IMG/VR virus record: IMGVR_UViG_3300044712_001084
Span: 1-64,000 of that record
Reading direction: 5' to 3' (one strand)
From: a virus
Length of the DNA: 64,000 nucleotides
The translations under genes were made by a program, and so were the position numbers. Below are positions 7,471 through 23,858 of the stretch, in pieces. The notes under the pieces were generated by a model. It saw only the letters and a list, made by a program, of their open reading frames with translations, was not told the origin of the DNA and did no database searches. Within the stretch, counting starts at the first letter, position 1. The number at the start of each line of letters is the position of its first letter.

Positions 7471-7896
7471 CTAGCGTTTGTAAGATCCGTAAGGACCTTT
7501 TGGTTTTACATCGTCTAGCGTCTTCTCTTCATCCGTTATGGTACGTGGACGTATGGTAGGATGACTCTTTGACCAATCTTTGACTATGCTGGATATAGCA
7601 ATATCCAAGGTCGTCACGACCTTATTCAATTTGGATGCCGATGACCCGTAACCAGAAATTTTGAAACCATCTTCTACTTTGGTGATCGAATAACCGTAAG
7701 GTCTCAATTTTGCTTTGCCTACTTCTACATAAGCAGTTCCACCTATAACGTCAATAGTTCCAGTCACATTATCGAATTTAGCCGCTAATGCGGCAGTATC
7801 ATTACTTGGCGCAGAGCCTCCAACCAAACCTGGCCTACCTTCATGACCGAAGTTCCCACTTCCTGATCCACCTTTGAACCGCATAGTCAGTTTCAT
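7471..7896 (-). CDS. Tagged protein 1 (GSGNFGHxGRPG tag + unknown ~100-aa domain)
   Basis: MRFKGGSGSGNFGHEGRPGLVGGSAP at N-terminus. Confidence 0.7.
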   Translation of the reverse strand: MKLTMRFKGGSGSGNFGHEGRPGLVGGSAPSNDTAALAAKFDNVTGTIDVIGGTAYVEVGKAKLRPYGYSITKVEDGFKISGYGSSASKLNKVVTTLDIAISSIVKDWSKSHPTIRPRTITDEEKTLDDVKPKGPYGSYKR

Positions 7897-7905
7897 AATA
7901 CCTCT

Positions 7906-8619
7906 CTAGCGTACGTTATCCACAAACCAATCTTCAATGGCGCTGGGCATGGGCTCACCCATCACGAAGTTAGCAAACATGTCGCAAAAGGCTTCTTCAT
8001 AAGAGCCGTTATAATTGGCGTAGCCTGACATAGAGCCACGATGCTCCCTCCAGACGTTATCGCGCCACGAGGTCAATACTGGGTTCGTCTCTACACGTCC
8101 TCTGCTACCTCCAGGTAATTTTACGAGGTCTGCGGACTTCACAGAGTTCTGCTTCCACCACAAATGTCCATACTCGTGACTCACGACATGCTTCAGCAGC
8201 GCGTCTCTATCGTTAGCGCCAGAGAACCCAAACCACTCGGCTCTATTGTAAGTGGAACCTGGAGATTTACTTGGTGGGTCATCTAATCTCCATGGCGCAA
8301 TATAGATATAGTTCTTGCCATCAATCCTGGTTGACCGTCCAAATGGATCTGAAGAGCCAGCCGCCACCGCGCCAGAGCTTCCAATGACAATCGCTTCAGG
8401 GTCATCCATAGCAATAGTGGCATGGATATCGGCCACCGCGTCATTGATCAAGGTGTGGTCAGCATCAGATAACGTCTTGCCAGTGGGCTTCTTGCTGACT
8501 GGATCCACGAAAGATATCTGCACGGCTGCGCTACCACCAACCTTGCCTGGTCTACCAGCATGACCAAAGTTGCCGCTTCCCTCTCCACCTTTGAACCTGA
8601 TACTCAACTTCATACGCAC
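7906..8619 (-). CDS. Tagged protein 2: zincin-like metallopeptidase
   Basis: N-terminal tag; HEYGH plus downstream SGYA...EEAFCDMF. Confidence 0.7.
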   Translation of the reverse strand: MRMKLSIRFKGGEGSGNFGHAGRPGKVGGSAAVQISFVDPVSKKPTGKTLSDADHTLINDAVADIHATIAMDDPEAIVIGSSGAVAAGSSDPFGRSTRIDGKNYIYIAPWRLDDPPSKSPGSTYNRAEWFGFSGANDRDALLKHVVSHEYGHLWWKQNSVKSADLVKLPGGSRGRVETNPVLTSWRDNVWREHRGSMSGYANYNGSYEEAFCDMFANFVMGEPMPSAIEDWFVDNVR

Positions 8620-8687
8620 CTCACTCTATCCTTATATAAACTAAAGAGCCTCCAACTGGAGGCTCTTATGAATACAGCAAACTGCGT

Positions 8688-8888
8688 CTAACTTTTACTT
8701 GGACCTATAAAGAGGAATAGAGCGAACAGAGCGCACACGGTGCCTATGGCGTAACCCATATAGGCAATCTCCATCAGCTTCTCCAGCATGGCTTGCCACG
8801 CCATATAATAGAAGAATGCCGCCACAATGACTAGGCACACTCCAATCAGCTTAGCCAGTGCATTCCCGCAACCATCATTCTGAGTCAT
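8688..8888 (-). CDS. Small membrane protein
   Basis: Two hydrophobic segments. Confidence 0.55.
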   Translation of the reverse strand: MTQNDGCGNALAKLIGVCLVIVAAFFYYMAWQAMLEKLMEIAYMGYAIGTVCALFALFLFIGPSKS

Positions 8889-9327
8889 CGCCAGCAATCC
8901 TTTCACGTGGGTCCGGCATCCCAGCCGCGTTCAGTAAACCCACCAACTTAGCAATGGCAAACTGGTATGCCTCGCACTTGCCCTGGTTGGTGGGATTGCC
9001 CAAAGATAGTATCATAGTTCGGATGCGCTCTGCTTCCAGGCCAACCACGACATTAGATACAGCGTGCAATACGTCCAGCGCTTGCGTGGGCATAAACGTG
9101 GCACTAACCTCCAGCAATATCTGTAATTCGTCATAGGGTGACGCTGGATTAGGTATAACACGCTCTTGCACGCGAACCAGGTGAACTGGATGGGCTGGTT
9201 TATTTACCATGGAGTACATTTGCTCAGCAGCTTTTTGGCGCGCATCACGTCTCCAAGGCTCTTGGTCAGCGTCAGTACAGCGCGGCAGCCTTGTCTTGAC
9301 TACATACGATACAAAATTTCCAGCCAT
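8875..9327 (-). CDS. Hypothetical protein
   Basis: Start adjusted to MAGNFVS. Confidence 0.5.
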   Translation of the reverse strand: MAGNFVSYVVKTRLPRCTDADQEPWRRDARQKAAEQMYSMVNKPAHPVHLVRVQERVIPNPASPYDELQILLEVSATFMPTQALDVLHAVSNVVVGLEAERIRTMILSLGNPTNQGKCEAYQFAIAKLVGLLNAAGMPDPRERIAGDDSE

Positions 9328-9329
9328 GG

Positions 9330-9521
9330 CTATTCCTTGGTATTCAGACGTGAGCCAATCCACTGCAGGAACACCAGCACCACCGTGCCCCACGCGGCCA
9401 TAATAAACCAAGCCAGTTCCCGGCTGGCCACGTGAAACAACTCGGAAACCATGTGTCCCAGCAACGCTGCGCACAGCATCAGGACAAAAATAATCACCCA
9501 ATACACAATCTTGCCAATCAT
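9330..9521 (-). CDS. Small membrane protein
   Basis: Two TM segments, AGGAG RBS, motif at 9541. Confidence 0.6.
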   Translation of the reverse strand: MIGKIVYWVIIFVLMLCAALLGHMVSELFHVASRELAWFIMAAWGTVVLVFLQWIGSRLNTKE

Positions 9522-9522
9522 G

Positions 9523-9837
9523 TCAGTCTCCTTTACTTATACTAAACTTGTACAACGCGTCTAGAATATCTAGACGTTGATCGATGGTCATTGGCGCGTT
9601 ATCGGCTACGAGGTCTTTGACCAACCGAACCATAACCCACCCTGTAGCGATATCACCGTCATCGCAGTCCACCTCCAATCCCATATCCACGCATAACGCC
9701 AAGAATGAGTCACGATACTCACTGGCTAGCGCCAAGTGGCCAGTCATATCCTTGACCGTATCTCTAATCCACTCTAGCTCAACCATGTAAGCCAGCGCAC
9801 GATCATTAGGAATAGGTTGCTGCCTGGGTTGGTACAT
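9523..9837 (-). CDS. Hypothetical protein
   Basis: Start MYQPRQ with GAGG RBS. Confidence 0.5.
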   Translation of the reverse strand: MYQPRQQPIPNDRALAYMVELEWIRDTVKDMTGHLALASEYRDSFLALCVDMGLEVDCDDGDIATGWVMVRLVKDLVADNAPMTIDQRLDILDALYKFSISKGD

Positions 9838-10073
9838 TACAGTAATTCCTCTCCGCATTGTGGATAGGTGTAATCTTCCACGTGATAGCATTTACCATCG
9901 CTAGTGCGCGTATAGTATCGCACATCAGTATGATTCCAGCCTTTTGTATGCGCAGCAGGACATACAACTTGCAATCTAGTGATCGTCACCTCTCCAGTAA
10001 TAGTATCGTACTCGTATGACGTAGATAGGTAGGAGAGTTCTGCACCGCAAGCCCTGCAGTACCGTGGTTTCAT
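9837..10073 (-). CDS. Small Zn-finger protein
   Basis: YCRACG...CP..H. Confidence 0.5.
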   Translation of the reverse strand: MKPRYCRACGAELSYLSTSYEYDTITGEVTITRLQVVCPAAHTKGWNHTDVRYYTRTSDGKCYHVEDYTYPQCGEELL

Positions 10074-10297
10074 CGGCTGCGTGCGCCGCAATATGGGCAA
10101 TAAACCACGTCAGCAGTGTCTTGCCAGACGTTATTGGATTGCAGGTCTGTATCTTGACCCTCAGCCGTTATGGTAATCAGCACGTAAGATGCTTCACAAT
10201 TCCCACATCGCATGACAGGAAACTCGATAGATATGGGTACGAATTGGCGCCAATGGCGTGTATAGGTCGTCAATTTGGTGTCGCTAGTTTTGGCCAT
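10070..10297 (-). CDS. Small Zn-ribbon protein
   Basis: CGNC...YCPYCG. Confidence 0.55.
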   Translation of the reverse strand: MAKTSDTKLTTYTRHWRQFVPISIEFPVMRCGNCEASYVLITITAEGQDTDLQSNNVWQDTADVVYCPYCGARSR

Positions 10298-10305
10298 GGT
10301 TCACC

Positions 10306-10524
10306 TCAACTCAGAGATATATCGATGGTATCGATGTGGCCATTGAGATAATTAGACACCTTTGTCATGATATCCGTGGCCATTTCCAGCTTAGCCAGAC
10401 CTTGTGCATAGTGCTCTCTGCCATCATAGCCATCACCGCAAAAGGTCTGTGCTTCTATCGCCAGAGCCTTTAGCAGCAAATCCAGTGCTAATACCTTTCT
10501 CTCGTTTATGTCCATATAATCCAC
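10306..10524 (-). CDS. Hypothetical protein
   Basis: Directly downstream of motif at 10535; ATG at 10515 fits the GAGG RBS. Confidence 0.55.
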   Translation of the reverse strand: MDYMDINERKVLALDLLLKALAIEAQTFCGDGYDGREHYAQGLAKLEMATDIMTKVSNYLNGHIDTIDISLS

Positions 10525-10603
10525 CTCTATCTATACTAAACTTGCTTATAAACAAAATAAACCCAGGAATTCCTGGGTTTATTGTAATAATTAGTGGGTT
10601 ATT

Positions 10604-10975
10604 TTACGACTCGAATTTGTCCACCACGTCAGGCTCTTTGACACGCGGCTCAGCAAAGTCTACGGCATCGACAGCCGTGCCCATCTCCGCCATGCAGGAG
10701 CCGCAGAAGTCGTAATGCCCGACACCAGGTCCGATGGGCAGCACCATGCGCAGAGCCGTCTCTACGCGCTGGTCGCAAGCTTCGCACTTCAGAGGATGGA
10801 ATGCCAATGGAGCAACCGCGTACAGCAGGTCTTCTAGGTCCATACCCAAAATGCGCCCATCGATAATGTCCATGACTTTCTTGACTTGGGCCACCTGAGT
10901 GGATTTCAGCACTTTATCCATCGAGGATAGTTGGCGCTTGATATGCGCTTCACGAGTGATTACAGAGTACTTCAT
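10604..10975 (-). CDS. Hypothetical Zn-binding protein
   Basis: CEAC...CGSC; GGAGG RBS. Confidence 0.6.
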   Translation of the reverse strand: MKYSVITREAHIKRQLSSMDKVLKSTQVAQVKKVMDIIDGRILGMDLEDLLYAVAPLAFHPLKCEACDQRVETALRMVLPIGPGVGHYDFCGSCMAEMGTAVDAVDFAEPRVKEPDVVDKFES

Positions 10976-11022
10976 ATGCCCTCCAAGGTATACAGTCTTA
11001 TCTTACTAAACTTGCTGGAAAG

Positions 11023-11054
11023 CAAAAGAGCCTCCATAATCGGAAGCTCTTTTG
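11023..11054 (-). terminator. Intrinsic terminator
   Basis: Minus strand GAGCTTCC-gattat-GGAGGCTC-TTTT. Confidence 0.7.
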
Positions 11055-11238
11055 GAAAACATGGGCTCAAAGCCTGGTAATGCGTCTGCTGGAAATTACG
11101 CTCAACGCGTCTGGCTTATGCTGGGTCAGCTAGCCTGAGTAGGTCCTAAGTGGAGAACATTGGCTGGCACTGAATGGCCAAGCCCTCGTTGGCTAGTATA
11201 ACCCGGCTGGAATTGGAACCAGAAGCCCATGGAATTCC
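11054..11238. ncRNA. Candidate structured ncRNA (~185 nt)
   Basis: Nested long-range helices CATGGGCT/AGCCCATG, GCTGGGT/ACCCGGC, GCTAGCC/GGCTAGT, TTGGCTG/TGGCCAA. Confidence 0.4.
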
Positions 11239-11239
11239 T

Positions 11240-11458
11240 TTACGAGTCCAGATATCTAGCCGTCATGGCCGCCATCAGACCCAGTATGCCCATAAAGACA
11301 CTGGCCAGGAATGCGCCGCTAGCCATCAATGTATCTTGGATGCTGGATGCTTCCACGCCATACAGGAATAAGATTAGTGCTAGGACGAATAGCACAATAC
11401 TGGCCACTAAAACAGCAGCCGCAAGACAAGATCCACCACCATTCGATTGTTTAGCCAT
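11240..11458 (-). CDS. Small two-TM membrane protein
   Basis: Hydrophobic; motif at 11477 and GAGG RBS upstream. Confidence 0.6.
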   Translation of the reverse strand: MAKQSNGGGSCLAAAVLVASIVLFVLALILFLYGVEASSIQDTLMASGAFLASVFMGILGLMAAMTARYLDS

Positions 11459-11542
11459 AGTTCCACCTCTATCTATACTAAACTTGCGTCATTCCAAGTC
11501 ATCCCATCCCTGGGAACATTTCAAAAAATTTTATAAAAATTT

Positions 11543-11737
11543 TTATGGCTGTCCCCAGAAACGCACGACCACCCATAGCAGACCTAATAAGAAGAAGCCA
11601 GCACCTAGTATAAGCAAGCTATATAGCATGGTATCACTGGCTGTCCAGCTAGCCGACACGCTACCAGCGTCATCCATAAATGCTACTGCCAAGCTATACA
11701 ATAGGAATACAATAAATACCAGCATAAGTTTCTTCAT
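11543..11737 (-). CDS. Small two-TM membrane protein
   Basis: MKKLMLVFIVF...; starts 2 nt after terL stop. Confidence 0.55.
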   Translation of the reverse strand: MKKLMLVFIVFLLYSLAVAFMDDAGSVSASWTASDTMLYSLLILGAGFFLLGLLWVVVRFWGQP

Positions 11738-11738
11738 A

Positions 11739-13985
11739 TTAAAATACCATCCCACCGCCCATCGAGGAATTGTCCCAAAAGGCCAAGCAGACAGAGTCCC
11801 CATAGTCAGTGGATCTACCCAGCCGCTCAGATATGTCGTTTTTACTTTCCAGCTTGATTACAGCGTCTTTTTGCATCTCATACTTGGGCGTAGATAGGTC
11901 CAGCACGAGTTCTTCCACCGGAGGGAGCATAACTTCAGAGCCGTATTCTGGATCCAATAGTTCCCGCATATTCCACCACATCGCAGCGCGTACATTTAGG
12001 AAGCGTAACTCCTTGCTACGATCCACCCAGGTCGTTCCACCCGACACCGTTATGGGTCGCAGCAGTGGTACATTGGACTCGTGTAATATATCGTAGAGCG
12101 ATGCGCCAAGCCCTCCATCAGTCTCGATATGCAACTCATAGCCTCTGGAAAGACTCTTGACGTAGCCAGCAAGGGATGTAATTGGAAGCTTCGAAAAGTA
12201 GTACATGTCGGAGATGACCAAGCGTTGTCTCCGTGCGCACACGGTTTTGTCAACCCCAGCACGCGCCACGTCCACGCCCAGGGCACGCTTGCCAGATTGC
12301 GGAGTCCTCCCGTTGGCGTGCCAAGCCTTCCAGCGCTCTGTAGCAGCCCTTATCCACGACAAAGGTATAACACCCTCTTCGCTAGAGTCAGCGAACTCCC
12401 CCAGGACGCGATTGAGGAATATAGAAGAGGACGCGCCCCACTGGCGCTCCCTCTGGCGTACCCACTCGCTAGATATGCGCCCTGCCTTTATGGCTTCATC
12501 CACTGTTACATGTCTAGTCTTCCAATCCTCATACCCTGGCTTATGGGAGTGGATGTCGTAGAATTGGCCTGATGGATCTCCAGGGGTAGATATGGCGAAT
12601 GCGAATGCCTCATCTGTAGTACCATCGTGAACGCTGGCTTCCTGGTTAGAACCCATTGTACCATCGACCTCTCTGGGTTGCTGGGTTTTGCTGGGTAGTG
12701 GGTTAGTATGGGATGCCCTGGTTCCCTGGGTTCCTATGGGTTGCTGGGATATGCTGGTAGCCCTTGGGTTGCTGGATTCCCTGGGTCGTTGGGAAGTATG
12801 GACGCGATGGAGCACGCCAGAGGTGCGTGGACTCGATGGCTCAGGTTGGCTGGGGTGGTGTGGGGCAAAACCCACGTTATCACCCACTTTCGAAGCCACT
12901 CCCTCCCCCAAGCCATCACCCACTCCCTCACCCAAGTTATCCCCCATACCAAACTCCACTCCCTGATCCACGCTTATACCCACTCCCTCCCCCATACTTT
13001 CTAACCCATCCCTAATACCCATCCCTGACATTCCAAGACTGATAGCTGCTGCTCCATCCGTTATTCTTCCACTCTTTACTCTATCCCTAATACTAGCCTC
13101 CCTTACGCTATCCACTCCCTTTACGCTATTGCTTACGATCTCCGAGAATGGACCTCCAATCAAATTTTTCACAACCGCTAGCCCACTCGCATTAGTGGCT
13201 ATACTAGGTGCTGGGTTCAGCTGGACTGCCTCCACAACCACTTTTCCTTTTATACCACCGTTGAATGGTAATCGCGTGATGGCCATCTTACCAGCGTATT
13301 TGCTACCATCCTTTAGCGCTTCCCATCTATCGATATTTGGATCACCCTCTGTGTCCTCGATTGCCATCTTGATATTCTTGGCATTGCTAAATGCGCCCTC
13401 TGCTGCATCCCAAGTCACTCTTGGAATAGCCTTGGCCTCATCGAATATGTATGTTAATCTTCTGGCGTGAGCACCCTCTATCGTATTATGATCGTCAGAT
13501 GCCACTGCGAATGCCTCCACTGTTCCAGATGACAATCGTATGGCTAATGACAAGAACTCTTTGTTGGGATCATATGGCTCTCTACCTATCAATGCCCAAT
13601 CCAAATGCCCAGCCAACTTTCTTATCTCTGGCCATAGGTACTTTTCTAACTGGCGCCATGCACTTGCCGTGGTTATAGTCTTGGCATCTGCCTCTGCTGT
13701 TAGCACTGAATGATGGGTTAGCAATGCTGCCATAAACGTCTTGCCTAATCCATGTGGACCTCTGACTGCCACTCTAGTATAGCCCTCGTCATAATACCCA
13801 AGAATTTCTTCCTGGTAAAATGCTAGCCTCTTGCCTAATGCGCCCAGCATATCGTATGCGAATGCTACCCTGTCTTTAGCATACATGCGCTGGAATTTGC
13901 GGAACTTGCCTGACGTGGATATCTGGGCATGGATAGCCAGCGAGAGGTCTGCTAAGTTGCCTGGTGTGCCAATTGACTGTAACAT
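11739..13985 (-). CDS. terL: Terminase large subunit with ~250-aa low-complexity insertion
   Basis: Walker A GPHGLGKT, Walker B YIFDEA, coupling motif ISTP, nuclease GVDVA...D...SxDYGD. Confidence 0.9.
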   Translation of the reverse strand: MLQSIGTPGNLADLSLAIHAQISTSGKFRKFQRMYAKDRVAFAYDMLGALGKRLAFYQEEILGYYDEGYTRVAVRGPHGLGKTFMAALLTHHSVLTAEADAKTITTASAWRQLEKYLWPEIRKLAGHLDWALIGREPYDPNKEFLSLAIRLSSGTVEAFAVASDDHNTIEGAHARRLTYIFDEAKAIPRVTWDAAEGAFSNAKNIKMAIEDTEGDPNIDRWEALKDGSKYAGKMAITRLPFNGGIKGKVVVEAVQLNPAPSIATNASGLAVVKNLIGGPFSEIVSNSVKGVDSVREASIRDRVKSGRITDGAAAISLGMSGMGIRDGLESMGEGVGISVDQGVEFGMGDNLGEGVGDGLGEGVASKVGDNVGFAPHHPSQPEPSSPRTSGVLHRVHTSQRPRESSNPRATSISQQPIGTQGTRASHTNPLPSKTQQPREVDGTMGSNQEASVHDGTTDEAFAFAISTPGDPSGQFYDIHSHKPGYEDWKTRHVTVDEAIKAGRISSEWVRQRERQWGASSSIFLNRVLGEFADSSEEGVIPLSWIRAATERWKAWHANGRTPQSGKRALGVDVARAGVDKTVCARRQRLVISDMYYFSKLPITSLAGYVKSLSRGYELHIETDGGLGASLYDILHESNVPLLRPITVSGGTTWVDRSKELRFLNVRAAMWWNMRELLDPEYGSEVMLPPVEELVLDLSTPKYEMQKDAVIKLESKNDISERLGRSTDYGDSVCLAFWDNSSMGGGMVF

Positions 13986-14129
13986 GTGGTTATCCTGTCT
14001 TTACTAGCCTGGAATGCTAATCCTTGGCTAGCCTTGGAATAGATGGACTAATGGTAATGGACTTTGGAATTACAAAGGCTAGCCAAGAGATATCCCTGGC
14101 TAGCCTTATGGCCTGTAAATATATACCGA

Positions 14130-16274
14130 TTAGATCATTACAAAATCATTGATCTGGACCGTTCCACCGTCTACCTTTATATCCACTGTATGCGATCCAC
14201 GCCCAGCGTACCATATCAATTGATGTAACATATATTGCGATATATTCCATGACGCTGACCATGAGCCTCCATCTATACGCCAGGAGAATGACCCACCCGT
14301 TCCAGAAGCGCTCATGCCGAATGACGCAAACGTACCGCTATATGAGATTGTACTACCCGCTGAAGATGATGATCTAGCCGTTCCCACCGTTGTCCAGGTA
14401 CCAGTTTCACCGTCATTAGCAGTGCCTAGTTTGGTTACTGGCTCATATTCAAAATCTACGCTTTCACTATACAGTCTGCTTGGCAATGGCGGTGTCCAAT
14501 CCTGCGTTATATTAGGAAATGGAGTGACTGCCCAGGCTGCTTTGAAGGCATTGGTAATCGTGGTATGACCCAGATCGTTGGGGTGAACGTCATTATGCGC
14601 TGGAAAATATTTGTCTATGTTTACTTGCGTCAGAGGTTCACCCTCTATGGTGCGAATTTCAGTAGCTAGATTAGCTCCAATTTGTAAGCCATAATGCGTT
14701 GCAAGAGCTAACCATAGATCACGCGCAGCACGTTTGGTAGCGTCCATTAGGTCGTGTTCGTCTGGCCATGTATATATACCCAAACTTATGGCCGCGTTCG
14801 GCATAAGTGTGCGGATACGTCTTATAAGCGCTTCGGCAGCACCTCTAGCGTAATTAGGCGCAGAGCCTCTCAAAAATACCTCGCCATCATTGACGGCATA
14901 ATCTATAACAACCATGTCTGGAATTACTGCTTGCAATTCTGCCATTCTAGCTAGCGATGTCCAAGAGCCGCACCCACTATTGGATAACGAGGTACGAACG
15001 TATTTTTTATCACGATATGTAGTATTCCACCACGTAATTAGCTGTGTCTGGAATGGATTAGTGGACGTGCCTCCAGCTGTTATGCTACCACCTATGAACA
15101 GCACTTGTTCCGGTGGGTTCAGGTCAGAGTCAGTAAAAAAACCTTGCAAGTTGTCCCACTCTCCGTCTGTGCCTATGGCCCACAAACTAGCCTCTCCGGT
15201 GGCGAACCCGCTAGCTGTAGCGGTGGTGGCTGTGGCGTTGAATGCTTGAGTGGTGGAATGCTTAGCTGTAACACCAACGTAAGTTTTGATGGTAGAACCG
15301 TTGGCAGTTATGTAAATATAGTAAGTTGTGCCGTTTGTCCAAGTTTGGGTTTTGCCAGCATCTAACTCGGTATCAACTCCGGCTTCGCGTTTATATAGCT
15401 TGATCGTATTGGCCGATTGAGTACATACCAATTTCAGGCAGTTGTCATCATCCGTGCGCCTGAATAATAGCGTCAATACGTCATTAGTGGCGCAAACCCA
15501 TTTGGCAACCATATGCGTATTAGCGCTACCAGTGAGTACAGCGCCAGAGGTGGCGCTGTAGGCAGACGCTGCTCCAAATTGCGTAGCTAACCCTGATACA
15601 GCTTGCGAGGCATCTGCGCAACGTAAGAACGCTATTTGACTGGTTCTATAGGTCGTCATTACAAATGGATATTCGTTCCCACCGCTGCCTTCTGTAACGC
15701 GCAATAAAGTGTAATGCGGATAGCTAGTGCCAGACTTTATAAAATATAGCGCTCCATTATTAGGTCGCAATATAACTGCCAAATCATGATACACGGCCAC
15801 GTTGCTATATGAACCTACTCCAGCAATATCCGTGCCCATCTCACGTAAGCCAACCGATACTGAGTTGGTATTGTATTGACCCAGAGCTAGCATAACACCT
15901 TGATTGTTAATACCTGTAGCAGTTCTAGCGCCAGCAAATCCGACTCTAGGACCGACCACGCCAGCGGTGGATACGTTATTATGATATACTCTGGCAAATA
16001 CTCCAGCGCCATTAGCACGCGTGACGGAATCTAACCATAAAATTGGATCTGCTACGCTACCACCGCCAGATGAAAAAACCAATTCACCATTGGCTATAGT
16101 TATATAATGCCCAGTATCTACTACCAAACGATTGCCTGGCCCAGGCTCTGCTGGAGTACCGTTGACGTTATCCACCAAGCGTGCAGTATCAAACTCATCG
16201 CGCATTAGATAACGATAACTAATGCCGCTGGATGATCTATTGAATGCTAAGCGATTTATGCGCAAATTATTCAT
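14130..16274 (-). CDS. Virion/tail-associated protein with SGNH hydrolase domain
   Basis: FIGGSIT, DYAVND, DVHPNDLGH; beta-rich N-terminal region. Confidence 0.7.
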   Translation of the reverse strand: MNNLRINRLAFNRSSSGISYRYLMRDEFDTARLVDNVNGTPAEPGPGNRLVVDTGHYITIANGELVFSSGGGSVADPILWLDSVTRANGAGVFARVYHNNVSTAGVVGPRVGFAGARTATGINNQGVMLALGQYNTNSVSVGLREMGTDIAGVGSYSNVAVYHDLAVILRPNNGALYFIKSGTSYPHYTLLRVTEGSGGNEYPFVMTTYRTSQIAFLRCADASQAVSGLATQFGAASAYSATSGAVLTGSANTHMVAKWVCATNDVLTLLFRRTDDDNCLKLVCTQSANTIKLYKREAGVDTELDAGKTQTWTNGTTYYIYITANGSTIKTYVGVTAKHSTTQAFNATATTATASGFATGEASLWAIGTDGEWDNLQGFFTDSDLNPPEQVLFIGGSITAGGTSTNPFQTQLITWWNTTYRDKKYVRTSLSNSGCGSWTSLARMAELQAVIPDMVVIDYAVNDGEVFLRGSAPNYARGAAEALIRRIRTLMPNAAISLGIYTWPDEHDLMDATKRAARDLWLALATHYGLQIGANLATEIRTIEGEPLTQVNIDKYFPAHNDVHPNDLGHTTITNAFKAAWAVTPFPNITQDWTPPLPSRLYSESVDFEYEPVTKLGTANDGETGTWTTVGTARSSSSAGSTISYSGTFASFGMSASGTGGSFSWRIDGGSWSASWNISQYMLHQLIWYAGRGSHTVDIKVDGGTVQINDFVMI

Positions 16275-16275
16275 G

Positions 16276-16617
16276 TCATGCTAGCCATTGATACTGAAGG
16301 CTTGCCGTGGCTTCCTCTTGAATGACTCGAATATCTGTGCCGGACACATAAACGATAACCGGGTCAGCGCCAGCACGTAATTGGAAACCAATCGATGCCG
16401 TTGGATTGGTTCCATCCAAACGGAACCTTACATTTTTGGTTATGGCCTGAATCATGATTTGCGTGGCACCAGCTGGTTTCGTTAGCGTGACTGCGCTGGA
16501 AATAGTGGGCCCAGAGCCGTGCGTTGAAACTGGCGCGTAGGCTTGATTGGTTTGATTACTGACCAGGCTCTTCATTTGCTGCCATAGCCGTTCCAGGTAA
16601 ACTTCAGCTGATAACAT
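16276..16617 (-). CDS. Small beta-sandwich virion protein
   Basis: QAITKNVRFRLDGTNPTASIGFQL pattern. Confidence 0.55.
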   Translation of the reverse strand: MLSAEVYLERLWQQMKSLVSNQTNQAYAPVSTHGSGPTISSAVTLTKPAGATQIMIQAITKNVRFRLDGTNPTASIGFQLRAGADPVIVYVSGTDIRVIQEEATASLQYQWLA

Positions 16618-16843
16618 TATACACCGTCCCTCTCTTATAAGTATAAGGATATATACTGGCTAGCTATCACCGCGTGACGCAGCCTTACATAATCCCCACG
16701 TGAATAAACTTGCCACTATAACGTAAATGATAATAGCTATCCACATTGATTAGCCTCTCTATCACTCTATACGCTTAGAAGCCTTTACAGCGTCAATCGC
16801 TTCTTGTACAGTGAGTATACCTCTGCCGAACTTCATAGCCAAG

Positions 16844-18013
16844 TCATCTGATATAGAGTCCATTGGAAAGTTGGACGCGTCTGCCAGCGTGCCAGCGGAA
16901 TCCGCTTCCTTTACCACCCTTGAGTCTTATTACCTCTTTACGCTCTGAGCCTCCAGCGCGCACGCCAAACTTCATAGAGCCGTCTTTGTAATACACTTTG
17001 ACAATCGTGGCTTTACTCTCGTCAACGACCTCGAACTGGTCGTTGATGTAGATAATCCGCTCAATATCGCTAGCGCTTGCCTCCTTGGCGCTCGTTGGCG
17101 TAGACGGCTGCACTAGAGGATATATAGCATTGATTTGTCGGTATAATTCCTTCCACACATAATCAACCTCGTGCATATGACCGCTATAGTCTAGCCGGGC
17201 AATCTCAGCTAACGTCTCGTTGATAGCCAGTGAGCTATATGGATCAGCCTGATAGTATGACCTGCTATATGCCGTCACACCATCTTTGGTGCGTAATTCC
17301 TCGGCATTATCCTCGATGTAGCGCATAATGACGTAGGATTGGTACTTATTTTCATAATCGGCATTACGCAAATTGCCGTCAGGCTTCATAATATATTCCA
17401 GCCTGGGCACACCTTTATCCATCTGCTCACGCATAATATTATCTATATCATACTTATCACGAGTATACTGCTCACTGAACATTTGCCATTTATCGTGCAT
17501 GACTTCGTGAGCCAGTACAGTCTTGGATATTTGATTATCCTCATTGGTATTATTATTACGTTGGAATGCTTCGTCATATAATCTTATATGCCTATCTATA
17601 GGACTATAATCTCCAGCAGCCTTCCATTTTACGTCACCGACTTGGAAAGGATATCCAACACCCTCGTAAGATATTAGAGCGGCATCATAACCCAAGCGCT
17701 CTGCTAAATGAGGAATTTGATCACGGAATGCCTCAACACGTTCTCTATGCTCTCTAGATAATCGATGTAGCGCAGCACGCTTGGCAGCCGTCTTATCAGC
17801 GAACTTTGGATCAGCTTCAATAGCGGCTGCTCGTAAACCAATGCGCGCATGGCCGCCACCTTTAGCAGAGCCGCCACGCAAGCCTGGTCTGCCTTTATGA
17901 CCGTAATTACCAGAGGTGGGCCCACCTTTGAGTCGGATAACTGACTTGGGTGTATGCAGCCAGTTCTCCCATTCAAAATCATCCAATAAATCTATATCTA
18001 GGTTAGTTGCCAT
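16844..18013 (-). CDS. Tagged protein 3: zincin metallopeptidase with N-terminal and degenerate C-terminal tag
   Basis: IRLKGGPTSGNYGHKGRPG; LAHEVMH; GVTAYS...NETLAE; C-terminal IRLKGGKGSGFRWHAGR. Confidence 0.7.
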   Translation of the reverse strand: MATNLDIDLLDDFEWENWLHTPKSVIRLKGGPTSGNYGHKGRPGLRGGSAKGGGHARIGLRAAAIEADPKFADKTAAKRAALHRLSREHRERVEAFRDQIPHLAERLGYDAALISYEGVGYPFQVGDVKWKAAGDYSPIDRHIRLYDEAFQRNNNTNEDNQISKTVLAHEVMHDKWQMFSEQYTRDKYDIDNIMREQMDKGVPRLEYIMKPDGNLRNADYENKYQSYVIMRYIEDNAEELRTKDGVTAYSRSYYQADPYSSLAINETLAEIARLDYSGHMHEVDYVWKELYRQINAIYPLVQPSTPTSAKEASASDIERIIYINDQFEVVDESKATIVKVYYKDGSMKFGVRAGGSERKEVIRLKGGKGSGFRWHAGRRVQLSNGLYIR

Positions 18014-19532
18014 AATCCCAATCCTCTATATAAAAATCCATAGTATCGTCAGTGTTCAGCGTCACCACCTCTCCAATATCATCTGAAAATGTAATAGGTG
18101 GCGCCACTCCAGCATCTCTGGGCAATATCCATACATCTTCCGCTTTCACAGTTCTAGATAGCACCAATCCAGTCAACCGTCTCGATTTATTACTGGCGAA
18201 TAAGTAGGCTCTACCTCTATTATTAGAGAACGATGATAATCCATAAACTTTAGCAGTCACGTGTTTATCGGCATCTTCTATCGTTATACCAGCCTTCTCC
18301 AGCATAGCGGTGCGTAATTTACCAGCATAACGTCCATTTACACCTCTATACATGACTACTTCTTCGCCATACAACTCTCTGAACAAGGCTTGATTATATT
18401 CCTGCCTAGCCTTGAAACCGGCAATCTGCCTATCCGTCAGTTGGACGTCAATCAAACCTTTAGGTTTATTCTTATTAGTCGTCAACGTGTTTATAGCAGC
18501 CCATTCATTATAAGCGCTGCCTGGCGACATAGTCCAATTTTCTTGCGAACCCATTACAAATAACATAGTTTCACGATCTGTCTTGGACTCTATATATTGC
18601 GCCATAGCGTAATCACGCGTCAGATTGCCTTGCCCTCGAAACACGCGCTGACCCAAATGAAAATATGAAGCTGAATATGAATCACCTCCATAAAACTTAG
18701 CATATTTGCGCTCATTAGCAAGTAGATACTGATGTAAATCCTCGATATATGGGTCATCTTCCGCTAACTGCGTGACTATAGCGCTAGATGGCGCAGAGCC
18801 GCCAACCTTACCAGGACGTCCTGCGTGGTCAAAATTACCGCTGCCTTCTCCACCTTTGAGTCGGATAGCGCCACGCTCTTTCTTCACCTCGCCATTATTA
18901 TACAGGCTCTTTATATAGTCATAGAATTTGCCTGGATTGCTGTAACCCATAGCCTTTATAGCCGTGCGAACAGCTTGCTGCGTGGACACGATACCTGTTT
19001 TGGGTGATAGAGCGTAATCACTGGTATGTAAGCGTAATTGATTCAAACCAAATCTACGCTCCCATTGAAAATACTGGCTGCCACCTCTCGAATAGATCAT
19101 ATAATCAAACTCTGCTTCAGACATCTTCAGCAAAGGCTGTAATTCATTCCATCCGATTAGATTGGCGGCTGGGTGCTCAGCTGCATAACCTTTCAACGCG
19201 TGTAATAGATAGCCCACCGACATCTTATCTTGCGCAGATGCCTTTGGAATATCTGGCCCAGGCTCGTTTATAGAGGCAATAAAATCCTCTCTTGATACAT
19301 CACCCCATACGATATTCTGTATGCGTTTATTGACATGATCCGCATAGCCTCTAATATCAGGCTGCTGAAGTCTGGCGTAAGTGGCAATATTGACGTTCTG
19401 ATCCCAAGCCAAGCGCTGGTCACTTGTAAGAGCCGCATCACCATCGACCACGCTACCACCAACTTGGCCTGGTCTACCAGCGTGACCGAAGTTTCCAGAG
19501 CCTTTACCACCCTTCAATCTAATAACTGCCAT
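18003..19532 (-). CDS. Tagged protein 4: tag-unknown domain-tag-ADP-ribosyltransferase-like domain
   Basis: Two tag copies; C-terminal MYRGV...LSSFS...GEVV (R-S-E ART pattern). Confidence 0.6.
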   Translation of the reverse strand: MAVIRLKGGKGSGNFGHAGRPGQVGGSVVDGDAALTSDQRLAWDQNVNIATYARLQQPDIRGYADHVNKRIQNIVWGDVSREDFIASINEPGPDIPKASAQDKMSVGYLLHALKGYAAEHPAANLIGWNELQPLLKMSEAEFDYMIYSRGGSQYFQWERRFGLNQLRLHTSDYALSPKTGIVSTQQAVRTAIKAMGYSNPGKFYDYIKSLYNNGEVKKERGAIRLKGGEGSGNFDHAGRPGKVGGSAPSSAIVTQLAEDDPYIEDLHQYLLANERKYAKFYGGDSYSASYFHLGQRVFRGQGNLTRDYAMAQYIESKTDRETMLFVMGSQENWTMSPGSAYNEWAAINTLTTNKNKPKGLIDVQLTDRQIAGFKARQEYNQALFRELYGEEVVMYRGVNGRYAGKLRTAMLEKAGITIEDADKHVTAKVYGLSSFSNNRGRAYLFASNKSRRLTGLVLSRTVKAEDVWILPRDAGVAPPITFSDDIGEVVTLNTDDTMDFYIEDWDYGN

Positions 19533-19535
19533 GGT

Positions 19536-20303
19536 TCACTTCCCTAATAAAGATTTGAGTTGCGTGAGGTCTTTTGCCTGGTCTAACTGGCGCTGCTCCA
19601 TCCTAGCTAGAATATCAGCCACATAATCAGGCCTGGACTGATATGCGATATACTGGCGCAGAGCCGTCTCGTCACCGTTGAAAACAACGATATCCATTGG
19701 ACGTTCAGCGCAACCTGGTAATATAAACCTATCCGCTGATATCTGCCACAACTGACAAGTGCCAACGGTATTGCCTGGGTTCCAGGACGTAGCTCTAATC
19801 TTGCTATGTAAATCAGCCCATGACAATCTGGTCGTGTTAGCAGGATAGAATGTATAAGGATATCTGGCCCAGGTATAACGCTCGCTGGGCCACTTGGATA
19901 GATAGGATATGAACCAACCTCCAGTATAGATATCGAATGACCAGGCAGCCGTCACCATATCCACAAATTTCTGTACATCAGCCGCATACGTAACAGCTGC
20001 GTAATTCTCTGGAGGCTTGACCTCGATATCCAGCATAACGTGCGTAGCCTCTTTGGGCATATGCGCACGCAACCAGTCAAAATTAGCTCTTGCGTTTACC
20101 CAGGGATTGTATACAAAATAGGGCCAGCGCAAGAAGTTAGCAGCCTGGTCCCACTGGGCTTGAAAATTGGCATCGAGGTGATGCCCACCGTTCATGTTAT
20201 TGAGCCTGACGATTATGGCACGCACTCCAGCATCCCATAATATCTGCTCTTCAATGTCCAGGCTTCCTTCCCAAACGTCCACAGCTAGCGTATAAGTAAG
20301 CAT
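19536..20303 (-). CDS. Endolysin, GH25 muramidase
   Basis: AVDVWEG, PYFVY, LDIEV (DxE), IYTG, LWQ, MDI. Confidence 0.8.
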   Translation of the reverse strand: MLTYTLAVDVWEGSLDIEEQILWDAGVRAIIVRLNNMNGGHHLDANFQAQWDQAANFLRWPYFVYNPWVNARANFDWLRAHMPKEATHVMLDIEVKPPENYAAVTYAADVQKFVDMVTAAWSFDIYTGGWFISYLSKWPSERYTWARYPYTFYPANTTRLSWADLHSKIRATSWNPGNTVGTCQLWQISADRFILPGCAERPMDIVVFNGDETALRQYIAYQSRPDYVADILARMEQRQLDQAKDLTQLKSLLGK

Positions 20304-20305
20304 AA

Positions 20306-21733
20306 TTACTTAGCTCCAATTGATCTACTTCCTAGCGTGTCTTTTTCCACGTGAATACCAAATTGCGTAAGGAATGGCCCACTAGATGGTGCTGTACTGG
20401 ATGCGGCAATCCTCGTGACCTTGGCCAAAATACGTCCACCCATTTTCATGTTGGCATCCAATAGCGTGCCTATAGATGTAGTAATCTCTGACATATCGTC
20501 AGTATTGGCAGGCACCGTTGTCTCAGCGCTAATGGTCACCGTATCCGAGTAAATAGGGAATGGCGCGGCAATAGCTGGTCCAGTGGTATATGAATACTCT
20601 ATTTGCCATTTTACATAACGATCTGACGCATCCGATACACCAGTCACCCAGTGAATATGGAATTCTATAGAGCTTCCTTCTTTATAAGCGTGCGACACCT
20701 CTTGCGCGTCAAATTCTACCGATTGATTGGTATTGAATCTGTAGGCATAAAACCCATTCGGCATTGCTAATAATGCCGCGCCAGTCACTCTTGCCGAGGA
20801 TATAGAACACGCGATATCATCGAAGACTGTCGCAGAGCCGTTGAATTTGATCGTACCGTCAGTCTCTATCGTGGTATTATTCGTGCTATCACCTAATACC
20901 AGTGGATAGGTGAGCATAGGTTCCCAGTCTGGATAGCCTCCAACGACCTTTAGCACCTCACCCGTTGAACCTATAGGAAGCCGCGTAGGACTGGATAGAA
21001 CTGACGATAGCGTGAATTCACGCGTATCCGAGTATAAGGGCCACCCACCGTTCAATTGCGCTGTTACGACATAGCGTCCGTCAGTTGGCGCGTTATCTAA
21101 GTAAGAAGATGTCCACTGCTGCTCGTGGCCAGCTGATGAGTCAGTTCCGAAGCGCGCACTTTTGCTGCCAAGAACAGTTCCAGTCAAGGACTCTTTGCGC
21201 ACGCGCAACGTGTAATCCTTATACACGCCATAAGCAATACCGCTGACCCATATATTCCAAGTGACGGTAATCGAGGTGCCAACGTCCACCGTCAAATCCA
21301 TATCCGCAATTATCACTTCGCTCGTGGAATTGTGTATAAGCTCTAATATATATGGCGTAGGATTGGATACCACTGTATTGGGCCCAAGGTAAATCATATC
21401 ACCTTCAGCCGTCATAGGGTTCGGCATAATCCCTATGTTATCAATAGCCTCTAGAGCCTCTTGAACAGTATCGTCAGCGACATCAAAGACTTTCGTGAAA
21501 CTGGACGTGTCCACCGATATAATCGAGGCAGGATGACCTGATGTAGTGAGACCACTCAACGCTGAATGCGCGATAGCCTCAGCGCTCTGCGACACGTCAA
21601 CCCATGAAGCACCGTTGAACCAATACAACACTGGTTCGTCTGTCAGAAACCACGTACCTTCTCTGACAGTCGTAAATGCCAGCATTTCTACCTCTGTACC
21701 AATATATAACGGTGCTCCATGAGTCTTGACCAT
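20306..21733 (-). CDS. Tail fiber/virion protein
   Basis: TVQEALEAI, MTAEGDMIY, RLPIGSTGEVL fiber-type motifs. Confidence 0.6.
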   Translation of the reverse strand: MVKTHGAPLYIGTEVEMLAFTTVREGTWFLTDEPVLYWFNGASWVDVSQSAEAIAHSALSGLTTSGHPASIISVDTSSFTKVFDVADDTVQEALEAIDNIGIMPNPMTAEGDMIYLGPNTVVSNPTPYILELIHNSTSEVIIADMDLTVDVGTSITVTWNIWVSGIAYGVYKDYTLRVRKESLTGTVLGSKSARFGTDSSAGHEQQWTSSYLDNAPTDGRYVVTAQLNGGWPLYSDTREFTLSSVLSSPTRLPIGSTGEVLKVVGGYPDWEPMLTYPLVLGDSTNNTTIETDGTIKFNGSATVFDDIACSISSARVTGAALLAMPNGFYAYRFNTNQSVEFDAQEVSHAYKEGSSIEFHIHWVTGVSDASDRYVKWQIEYSYTTGPAIAAPFPIYSDTVTISAETTVPANTDDMSEITTSIGTLLDANMKMGGRILAKVTRIAASSTAPSSGPFLTQFGIHVEKDTLGSRSIGAK

Positions 21734-21735
21734 TT

Positions 21736-21966
21736 CTAATCCTTGCTGCGCAACTGAAACTTCTTTTTACGAGGGCCACTGGGTGTCGTAATGGCCGCCA
21801 ACGCAGCCCTCCAGGCATCATCCAAGGCTTCGTCCTTTACTTCCTCAGTCCAGATACTGGCACCAGTCGGTTTACCATTATCATCCACGATCTGGCCGTC
21901 CGGCTGCGTCTCTGGCTCAACGGTTTTGGCGCTGCTTAGCTTTACTCTCATAGTATGCCTCTCCAA
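21736..21966 (-). CDS. Small hypothetical protein
   Basis: Co-oriented; GGAGAGG RBS before ATG at 21951. Confidence 0.5.
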   Translation of the reverse strand: MERHTMRVKLSSAKTVEPETQPDGQIVDDNGKPTGASIWTEEVKDEALDDAWRAALAAITTPSGPRKKKFQLRSKD

Positions 21967-23173
21967 CTCGATAGCTCAATGAATCATCTGCCATATACTT
22001 TATGGCTTGCCAACTGGAATTCAGCATGGACTCTTTACCTAATTTGAAACCATCTGGACCTACGAATGCCGCAATCTCCCAAGAGTGCTGTAAGGAATCC
22101 AACGTGGATCTAGGCATAGCCGTATTATAGCGCTGGCTCCACATACGCTCCAATTTGGCTTGAGCGCCAATCAGATACGTCTCGTGCCTGAAATCGAAGC
22201 CCATCCTGGCCCACGCGTACCCACCTACGTCAATATTGGCGTAAATAGTGACCTCTTTGATGCCAGCTTCTTTATAAGTCACTTCACTGGATTGATACCA
22301 GGCAGAGCCGAACCCAGTACCTTGCTGACTACCATTCAGAGTGAATAGGTCGTGATGAACTTCCTTCAACTTTACATAAATAGAGCGTGTAAAGCCACCG
22401 ACATAACTACCATCGGCAGTTCGCACAATACCTTCCACTTCAACCGTTGGACCTCTAGACCCATCCTTCAACGTTATCGATTGAACTATACCACGCGTAC
22501 CCGTAGTTTCATCCACAGTATTCCAAGCTTCTTCTACAAAATCCTCGATGGGCTTGGTATATCCTGCTTTTGTCCAGGCTTCTAATACGTCTCTATCAGT
22601 AACACTGAGCGGTCCTCGCAATTGATTTTTCACCTCGGAAGCCAGAGGCTCAACCTTCAGACCTTTCTTTGGATTGATAGCCTTATCAGCTGGCTTGGGA
22701 TAATCCATAGTAGGCTCAGTCATACGCGGCTTGGGGTGTGACCATAGGTCCCATTCCTCCATAGCTCTTTGCCGCGCCAGCCCTGCCTCGAATGATGCTG
22801 TCACATTACCCCAACCTTGCTCACGCGATATGCGATATTGTAAATCATATGCCTCTTGGCCGCGCAACTCACGCGTAGCGTTATCGCGCAAATCCGCATC
22901 CCATATCTCATACTGGCGCTGTCTCGCATCACGCCCATAATCCTCTGCCATGGTACGTGACCAACCAGCACGCATCTGGCGCGTGACCTCGGTGGAGCGT
23001 GCTCGTTCTCCAGCATTCAATCTATCGCGTCTGGCTTGCTGCTCTGGCGTCAATTCTCTGGGCGCTGAACCACGTGCTGGCGCTGAACCTCCGACACGCC
23101 CAGGTCTGCCAGCGTGACCAAAGTTCCCAGAATTATCATTGCCTTCTTTCCAAGTGACCACTATCTTACCCAT
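21917..23173 (-). CDS. Tagged protein 5: GNAT-like acetyltransferase domain
   Basis: VTWKEGNDNSGNFGHAGRPGRVGGSAP; C-terminal QQGTGFG (acetyl-CoA motif A) and GGYAWARMGF. Confidence 0.65.
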   Translation of the reverse strand: MGKIVVTWKEGNDNSGNFGHAGRPGRVGGSAPARGSAPRELTPEQQARRDRLNAGERARSTEVTRQMRAGWSRTMAEDYGRDARQRQYEIWDADLRDNATRELRGQEAYDLQYRISREQGWGNVTASFEAGLARQRAMEEWDLWSHPKPRMTEPTMDYPKPADKAINPKKGLKVEPLASEVKNQLRGPLSVTDRDVLEAWTKAGYTKPIEDFVEEAWNTVDETTGTRGIVQSITLKDGSRGPTVEVEGIVRTADGSYVGGFTRSIYVKLKEVHHDLFTLNGSQQGTGFGSAWYQSSEVTYKEAGIKEVTIYANIDVGGYAWARMGFDFRHETYLIGAQAKLERMWSQRYNTAMPRSTLDSLQHSWEIAAFVGPDGFKLGKESMLNSSWQAIKYMADDSLSYRVGEAYYESKAKQRQNR

Positions 23174-23858
23174 CTTGAACCTCGCTGTAATCTGGAAGAT
23201 AAACTTCGCTGCGCCGCATATCGACATTCTGAGCAACTTCTCCACCCAGTCTAGCCGCTAACTCACGTGCCGCACGTTCTCGCACGTTTGGATCCGTGAT
23301 ATACTTTGAGAATAAATCAGCCACCGTGGCTCGTAATAATAAAACTTGCGCAGCCGTGAGTGTATTGCGGGCATCGGTGCGCGATATCTTTTCCACCAGC
23401 GTGCCTATGGATCCAATGACATTCAAAAACCGATTGAGCCATATCCCATAATTATCATCCCCAGGCTCTGGAAATAAGGACACCATTTCAGCATAAATAG
23501 CCTTGGCCGTAGCCAACTCATAATCGAGGTTCAATAACTTACCACGATCTTGATTCAGATATTCCTGGATCTGGTCATTGAGCCGCGTGCGCGTCACAAA
23601 CGCTGTGCGCCCAGTGCGAATGTTGGGATTGGCTGATGTATTTCCACCGTGAAACGCGCACGCGCCTGTACCAACGTGCCAAGTCTTATACCCAGCTGGG
23701 TTGGTGCAGCGCAACGCGTGATCTTTATGCATGCGCCTGAAACAGATTGCCTTTTCCTCTCGATTGGCTGGCAACTTGACAAAATAGGTCGTGCCACCCG
23801 GTGTGCCAGGCTCTTCGCGTATATTTCCAGCGCGTATTTTTGAGAATTCAACCGACAT
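23166..23858 (-). CDS. Putative terminase small subunit (HGG-motif protein)
   Basis: C...RCTNPAG..TWHVGTGACAFHGG followed by helical oligomerisation-like region. Confidence 0.5.
   Translation of the reverse strand: MSVEFSKIRAGNIREEPGTPGGTTYFVKLPANREEKAICFRRMHKDHALRCTNPAGYKTWHVGTGACAFHGGNTSANPNIRTGRTAFVTRTRLNDQIQEYLNQDRGKLLNLDYELATAKAIYAEMVSLFPEPGDDNYGIWLNRFLNVIGSIGTLVEKISRTDARNTLTAAQVLLLRATVADLFSKYITDPNVRERAARELAARLGGEVAQNVDMRRSEVYLPDYSEVQDG

Follow-up and report, generated by a model that had tools for sequence, protein, structure and literature searches.

We examined a 25-residue glycine-rich peptide tag that recurs in a 64,000-nucleotide stretch of viral DNA (hereafter the window), which comprises the first 64 kb of the 74,005-bp IMG/VR virus record IMGVR_UViG_3300044712_001084. 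The two ends of the record repeat over 127 bp, making it in effect a complete circular assembly, and the minus strand holds 81 of the 95 called open reading frames (ORFs; about 85%). The ORF list together with a six-frame motif scan places seven copies of the tag in five minus-strand genes of the window, and the motif scan of the 64 kb found no further copy. This agrees with a first-pass annotation made from the letters alone, which had reported seven copies in five otherwise unrelated genes at positions that differ from ours by no more than a few bases. When the search was widened to the full record, an eighth copy emerged outside the window, at the start of the 213-residue gene p213 (genome positions 72108–72749).

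The tag consists of a short leader, hydrophobic-Arg-hydrophobic-Lys (h-R-h-K) in this genome, followed by a near-invariant core, GG-x-GSG-N-F-G-H-x-GRPG-x-V-GGS. Twelve residues are invariant in an alignment of the seven intact copies, and every copy in this genome is headed by the pattern h-[R/T]-h-K, as had been observed at first. The copies find one another in within-genome tblastn searches at E-values of 1e-5 to 1e-15. Their aligned DNA has a mean identity of 70% and differs by synonymous changes such as AGC/TCT for Ser and AGA/CGT for Arg; the conservation is therefore at the protein level, and the codon differences pointed out earlier are real. A DNA-level repeat was dropped as the origin of the copies because the synonymous sites differ, a signal peptide because the tag lacks a hydrophobic core, and Asn-mediated self-cleavage because the Asn is replaced by His in 17% and by Asp in 3% of copies. 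Of the eight copies in this genome, six sit at the N-terminus and each heads a stand-alone protein. Five of the six tagged proteins consist of a single unit and the sixth, p509, of two units, compared with 2–15 domains per polypeptide in polyvalent proteins.

All five tagged genes of the window lie on the minus strand. The 141-residue p141 (7471..7896) starts with the leader MKLTMRFK and an N-terminal tag at 7810–7887, and its body has no Pfam or PHROG match. The neighboring p237 (7906..8619; tag at 8527–8601) is zincin-like, with the HExxH motif HEYGH, and its true start is likely the ATG at 8613, which would give the leader MKLSIRFK. A second HExxH motif (HEVMH) makes p389 (16844..18013) zincin-like; it has a 29-residue leader and an N-terminal tag (17864–17944), and its body is homologous to units of multi-tag proteins that have weak zincin matches in Pfam. 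Of the two zincins originally called, both HExxH motifs thus stand, and family support is confined to the weak Pfam matches of the p389-homologous unit. The gene p509 (18003..19532) encodes two units, each behind a tag, one N-terminal (19446–19532, with the Met) and one internal (18792–18869). In p442 (21917..23245), which likely starts at the ATG at 23173, the N-terminal tag (23081–23149) has the variant leader VVTWK followed by E. The GNAT-like domain ascribed to p442 survives only as a weak likeness in its C-terminal domain (E 0.18 to an acetyltransferase in the PDB, and E 0.003 to GNAT for a homologous unit), and the protein matches phrog_25452, of unknown function, at 1e-9.

None of the tagged proteins of the window has a Pfam match to its own sequence, and no MuF domain was found in the tagged proteins of this genome. 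The ADP-ribosyltransferase (ART)-like domain previously suggested for p509 was not confirmed, as p509 has no Pfam match and a sequence search of the PDB gave nothing useful. An AlphaFold2 model of p509 unit 2 with its tag, built from a two-row alignment, had a mean predicted local distance difference test score (pLDDT) of 40.8 and was unusable. The bodies of p389, p442 and p509 unit 1 are each homologous to single units of multi-tag proteins (P0003 for p509 unit 1), and p509 unit 2 has a stand-alone homolog, P0273, that begins with Met, leader and tag (47% identity, BLASTP; alignment). Hence the same units occur both fused and unfused, and the junction falls exactly at the tag.

The remaining copy lies at the C-terminus of p389 (16865..16933, minus strand) and is in frame but degenerate: VIRLK and GGKGSG are kept and the remainder has decayed. 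No open frame follows it, so we rejected a frameshifted continuation. Only five of 275 tags elsewhere have fewer than 40 residues behind them, and as no domain lies behind the degenerate tag, a further unit was probably once encoded there and has been lost, leaving the tag as a scar. A comparable placement is seen in the portal proteins of two prophages, L094 (Oscillibacter sp. UBA8280) and L095 (Clostridiales bacterium CCNA10, AP018533.1 around 1.71 Mb). These portals carry two tags, the second about 10 residues from the C-terminal end and directly ahead of the MuF gene, and, like the degenerate p389 tag, it has no domain behind it.

The first-pass annotation had recommended a profile search of the tag and a tabulation of the fused domains. 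We built a profile from the seven good copies and scored it against 1.84 billion cluster representatives, which yielded 4,920 matching protein clusters at E ≤ 1e-3 and 827 at ≤ 1e-10. The 150 best matches are proteins of 500–2,700 residues with 3–9 tag copies at a median spacing of 220 residues, and many of the matches are polyvalent proteins 1,000–2,700 residues long. A logo over 579 instances reads h-R-x-[K/L/R/A] and then GG-x-GSG-[N/H]-F-G-H-x-GRPG-x-V-GGS-[A/S]-[P/S], with about ten core positions invariant or nearly so across the family. When 275 tags in 165 distinct ORFs were placed, 76 (28%) fell in the first 30 residues and 72% were internal. The N-terminal tags in these ORFs always keep at least five residues ahead of the GG, and all but five of the 275 tags have a domain-sized stretch behind them, which in nearly all cases is at least 80 residues long. 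Single N-terminally tagged proteins are also found in other loci (45 cases).

The enzymes attached to the tag fall into a recognizable set. Pfam searches with 60 family proteins returned ADPrib_exo_Tox (10), ART-PolyVal (8) and Phage_Mu_F (6), and further GNAT families, NUDIX, ATLF, Zeta toxin and topoisomerase IB, which are the domains typical of polyvalent proteins and MuF toxins. HExxH motifs are present in 81 of 702 inter-tag units, where shuffling predicts 5.8. The comparison supports the earlier view of the tag as a portable module on phage proteins of the capsid-cargo kind. The hosts of the family are very diverse and include Clostridia, Oxalobacter, Alphaproteobacteria, Eggerthellaceae and Elusimicrobia, among others. 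No model in Pfam, PHROGs or NCBIfam covers the tag, motif-string searches of 8.4 million papers and preprints and searches by concept found no published description, and the 25-residue tag is to that extent undescribed.

The tagged genes have a characteristic place in phage genomes. In 72 viral loci we found a recurrent order of large terminase, portal, tagged genes, MuF, protease/scaffold (Peptidase_S78 or DUF2213), cement and major capsid protein, with the tagged genes arrayed on one strand. MuF domains were found in 50 of these loci, 19 of which have the domain within a tagged protein. Fourteen distinct tagged proteins contain a MuF domain, which often ends directly ahead of a tag. In 13 distinct proteins a tag comes immediately after a portal domain, which belongs to one of two Pfam families; tags also come immediately after MuF domains and, in S78 and DUF2213 proteins, separate the protease part from the scaffold part. 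The same arrangements recur at 25 loci of prokaryote genomes, including those of Oxalobacter paraformigenes HOxBLS (NZ_KI392031.1, around 874–881 kb, where a portal, a MuF gene and a two-tag protein of 1,280 residues are found) and Clostridiales bacterium CCNA10 (AP018533.1, around 1.708–1.714 Mb). Portal, MuF and protease are known prohead-internal proteins, and the fusions to them are our main argument for reading the tagged units as capsid-internal; the tag would then mark capsid-internal cargo units. Proteins of the polyvalent kind have been detected in virions, namely phi24B gp47 by proteomics (bioRxiv 10.64898/2026.04.10.717836) and the P1 Dar proteins (PMC5512222).

We found that the residue directly ahead of the GG is uniform within a phage and different between phages. 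Among 40 loci with at least three tags, the modal residue class accounts for 95% of the tags, compared with 51% when tags are drawn by shuffling from the pool. Protease families were then sought in the whole records of 87 non-redundant loci. The residue is Lys in 8/8 loci with an S78 protease, Asp in 12/12 loci with a strong DUF2213 match, Leu or Ala in 8/10 loci with a weak DUF2213 match plus a zinc ribbon, and Lys in 9/10 loci with the protease family of the present phage. The overall concordance of 37/40 loci was reached by 0 of 10,000 permutations. Portals of the Phage_portal_3 type are present in both Leu/Ala and Asp phages, so the residue follows the protease and not the portal. Other lineages have Asn (L017, L018, L021, L060, L079), Glu (L052, L059) or His/Tyr/Gln (L027, L043) ahead of the GG. 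In most of these lineages the DNA retrieved yielded no protease family, and L027 and L043 gave no more than a weak DUF2213 match.

The first-pass annotation had placed the portal, protease, scaffold and capsid genes outside the window, and they lie partly inside the same genome record. Their order is a 699-residue ORF, p213, a LigT plus MuF-like protein, P0151/P0153 (406–423 residues) and P0152 (479 residues). The 699-residue ORF crosses the record ends, and its N-terminal part (2..967, minus strand) is a putative portal by position; in 14 of 17 related loci it likewise precedes the genes for the MuF-like protein, protease and capsid. It has no family match, the MuF-like assignment is positional too, and hhalign comparisons of both proteins with portal and MuF alignments of other loci were not significant. 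An AlphaFold2 model of a close relative's putative portal (11-row alignment) was unusable at a mean pLDDT of 40.9, and PDB sequence searches with the putative portal, the MuF-like protein, the protease-scaffold and the capsid candidate gave nothing useful. The N-terminal 200 residues of P0151 resemble S78/S77 prohead proteases in a structure search (TM 0.59–0.68 to S78 clusters); His58 and Ser107 are invariant in 40 homologs, there is no Pfam match to the S78 model, and the C-terminal half is an acidic, scaffold-like coiled coil. P0152 resembles SU10-type capsid proteins (feature score 0.97). The only tagged gene of this phage inside the head module is p213, directly after the putative portal. 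Across the 17 loci of the lineage the order is portal, MuF-like gene, zero to five tagged genes, protease and capsid, and the tagged set changes completely between relatives.

The MuF-like gene carries a further domain. A LigT/2H-phosphoesterase domain (PF13563, 1e-11) is fused to this head protein of about 215 residues (genome positions 70904–72100, minus strand, outside the window). In every relative the fused protein comes after the putative portal, and some relatives have a version that bears N-terminal tags itself; it could be a capsid-carried phosphodiesterase.

Sites resembling the leader occur in the head proteins themselves, where a search for xR[LF]K had been advised. Homologs of the protease-scaffold protein share a block, PRxGKLR[IV]xR[FMY]K, in which Arg is kept in 111 and 105 and Lys in 113 of 120 sequences. 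The block is followed by A, E or S, lies directly ahead of a variable acidic tail, and reads LRVTRYK in a 48%-identical relative. In capsid homologs the variable N-terminal stretch of about 45 residues ends at h-[FLYM]-K followed by E (Lys 116/120, Glu 113/120), and a Glu likewise follows the variant leader of p442. Both sites match the leader of the lineage in having Phe or Leu at P2 and Lys at P1, and the scaffold site also has Arg at P3. The other protease families have sites of their own kind: h-D then G in DUF2213 scaffolds, h-K then [GS] at the end of the protease domain in S78 proteins, and ELKxL then A, plus further L-[KR]-x-[LA] sites, in zinc-ribbon DUF2213 scaffolds. A complex prediction from alignments of the protease domain (residues 1–200) and a 40-residue leader and tag segment scored 0.15 against a mark of 0.32, which speaks neither for nor against an interaction.

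Taken at a probability of about 0.6, our proposal is that the tag is a two-part punctuation mark, in which the leader would be cut by the phage's own prohead protease and the core kept on enzyme units that are packaged in the capsid and injected. The leader of four to six residues, here hydrophobic-Arg-hydrophobic-Lys, would be both the recognition and the cut site of the phage's HK97-type prohead serine protease. The cut would fall between the Lys and the first Gly, and the 20-residue glycine-rich core would stay as the new N-terminus of the following unit. In other phages the tag–enzyme units, strung together or fused behind portal, MuF or protease, would presumably be cut apart inside the prohead; in the present phage the predicted units are mostly separate genes, each opening with a Met that is followed by leader and core. 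Most likely, therefore, the enzymes that bear the tag, of which two are zincin-like and one is weakly GNAT-like, are packaged in the capsid and delivered with the DNA. HK97-type prohead protease (Peptidase_S78) cleaves the capsid protein after Lys. Cleavage of the tag after Lys by a protease of this kind, as the first-pass annotation had put forward, is plausible on comparative evidence, from which we also infer packaging and injection.

That annotation had further described the tag as a portable address, which is not supported as worded, since the tag is not mainly an N-terminal address. The tags are mostly internal and also stand behind domains that reach the prohead by themselves, and therefore the tag looks first of all like a cut-here separator ahead of every unit. 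In stand-alone genes both leader and core are nevertheless kept, so the site should have a function even where there is nothing to separate. A short propeptide could be removed there, as happens in T4 (PMC3012670), or the protease could serve to recruit the protein. Our leading guess is that the core holds the substrate to the protease, or to some other head component that is conserved, and in this way may also load stand-alone cargo. We put forward more tentatively that the core might be a universal loading handle, which would dock any protein with leader and core on a conserved head-assembly component, likeliest the HK97/assemblin-fold protease, so that the protein enters the prohead and is released there by the cut at the lineage-specific leader.

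Several observations weigh against the punctuation proposal. Five of the six tagged genes in this phage are outside the head module, near lysis/lysozyme, tail-fibre-like and terminase genes, and the portal and MuF-like assignments inside that module are positional. The matching scaffold and capsid sites were found after the motif was known. The leader–protease association is uncorrected for shared ancestry, and related phages share both. A tblastn search of 50,697 GenBank phage records with the tag and the 5-tag protein P0008 gave no match, in a search whose low-complexity filter may hide the tag. Finally, a protease needs few residues round its cut, and this does not account for 20 residues on the prime side that hardly vary while the protease, portal and capsid families differ.

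A rival reading, that of the first-pass annotation, is that the tag is purely an address, whose core binds capsid, scaffold or portal and loads the enzymes, with cleavage after Lys as secondary trimming. So constant a core would need something to bind, a precedent exists in the T4 capsid targeting sequence (CTS; PMC3012670), and a cleavage site alone would have no obvious use at a free N-terminus, where six of eight copies here and those of the 45 single-tag proteins elsewhere are found. We consider this unlikely, given that 72% of tags are internal and that portal, MuF and protease domains, behind which tags occur, need no address; moreover, the core stays constant while capsid, portal and protease families vary, which is hard to fit with binding to a fast-evolving shell protein. 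The excess of HExxH motifs in inter-tag units, and their presence in two of the six tagged proteins here, suggests another protease for the cut, namely the co-encoded zincin metallopeptidases, which would free the units after injection much as Iyer et al. envisaged for the MPTase domains of polyvalent proteins, for which autoprocessing was proposed (PMC5512222). Yet 94 of the 150 multi-tag proteins have no HExxH unit, the residue ahead of the GG tracks the family of the serine prohead protease, and the same motif is kept in scaffold and capsid proteins, so that cutting by zincins appears improbable.

The core could also act in the infected cell, by binding a conserved bacterial component or DNA (its GRP resembles the core of an AT-hook) or by leading the unfolded protein through the tail channel. 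It would stay on the cargo after a cut ahead of the GG, and it is invariant across phages of very different hosts. Such a role is nonetheless very doubtful, as the core also stands ahead of scaffold domains that never leave the head, and position +11 is Glu in 47% of copies with a net charge near zero, unlike DNA-binding hooks. Least probable, in our judgment, is that the tag has no packaging or processing role and is mainly a module boundary that eases recombination of enzyme cassettes. Fusion and fission exactly at tags (P0273 versus p509 unit 2), the scar-like decayed tag at the end of p389 and the completely different cargo sets of close relatives would all fit a boundary of this sort. Copies that differ at synonymous sites (70% DNA identity) and still share 12 invariant residues, with about ten core positions near-invariant family-wide, speak against it, and only selection at the protein level would keep the residue ahead of the GG uniform in each phage and linked to the protease.

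One close parallel to the proposed cut-and-keep tag is the CTS found on the T4 internal proteins IPI–III and Alt (PMC3012670). In both systems a short peptide is common to unrelated anti-host enzymes, is tied to head assembly and is probably cut by the phage's own prohead protease, and the cargo set is highly variable between relatives. The two peptides have no sequence similarity, and the T4 CTS is strictly N-terminal and lineage-specific, whereas the present module is mostly internal, is repeated up to nine times per protein and has a core common to thousands of phages with different proteases. In T4 the CTS is removed by the prohead protease gp21, whereas the core described here would remain on the product.

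Large members of the tag family are akin to polyvalent proteins (PMC5512222) in having ART-PolyVal, MPTase/zincin, MuF, GNAT, ParB-like and Zeta toxin domains and in adjoining portal and MuF genes. In the present phage, by contrast, this repertoire is unfused into single-unit genes, each with its own tag. The polyvalent protein paper proposes zincin autoprocessing; the motif is absent from it, as are the words 'glycine' and 'linker'. MuF polymorphic toxins (PMC5576092) likewise place toxin domains behind a head protein that is encoded beside the portal, and these have been proposed to be injected, whereas the tagged proteins of the window have no MuF domain. No shared junction peptide is described in that paper, in which 'linker' and 'glycine' are also absent. 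The parallel with HK97-type maturation is the Lys ahead of the proposed cut in S78 phages and in this lineage, together with the conserved Lys sites in scaffold and capsid. The known substrates of that maturation differ in being capsid, scaffold and portal proteins and not enzyme arrays with a common glycine-rich peptide.

Capsid-packed, injected phage proteins are usually known only from virion proteomics of cultured phages. If the punctuation proposal is true, metagenome sequences could be mined directly for injected anti-defence and host-takeover enzymes by means of a 20-residue mark that at least 4,920 clusters contain, and the tag would delimit the functional units of giant polyvalent proteins. 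The residue ahead of the GG would also predict the specificity of several uncharacterised prohead-protease families, with DUF2213 proteases cutting after Asp and the zinc-ribbon variant after Leu or Ala. If the core does act as a loading handle, thousands of unrelated phages would share a portable and programmable tag for encapsidation and injection, with a residue code naming the serving protease, and foreign proteins could be packed into phage heads quite generally with its help.

Other genes are interleaved with the tagged ones. A 714-residue protein (window positions 14130–16274, minus strand) with a GDSL lipase/esterase domain (PF13472, 1.5e-12) is interleaved with p389, p509 and p442. 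Among the same genes is a GH25 lysozyme (PF01183, 9e-7; 19536–20303, minus strand), whose gene ends 3 bases before the p509 start. The 748-residue large terminase (11739–13985, minus strand) contains a low-complexity Gly/Ser/Pro-rich insertion of about 250 residues, placed between the ATPase part (PHROG match, residues 27–204) and the nuclease part (455–739). Beyond the window, genome positions 65917–68116 on the minus strand encode an amino acid:DNA transferase (PF18724, 1e-20) and, beside it, a radical-SAM protein (phrog_9252, 7e-93), a pair which suggests that the phage hypermodifies its DNA.

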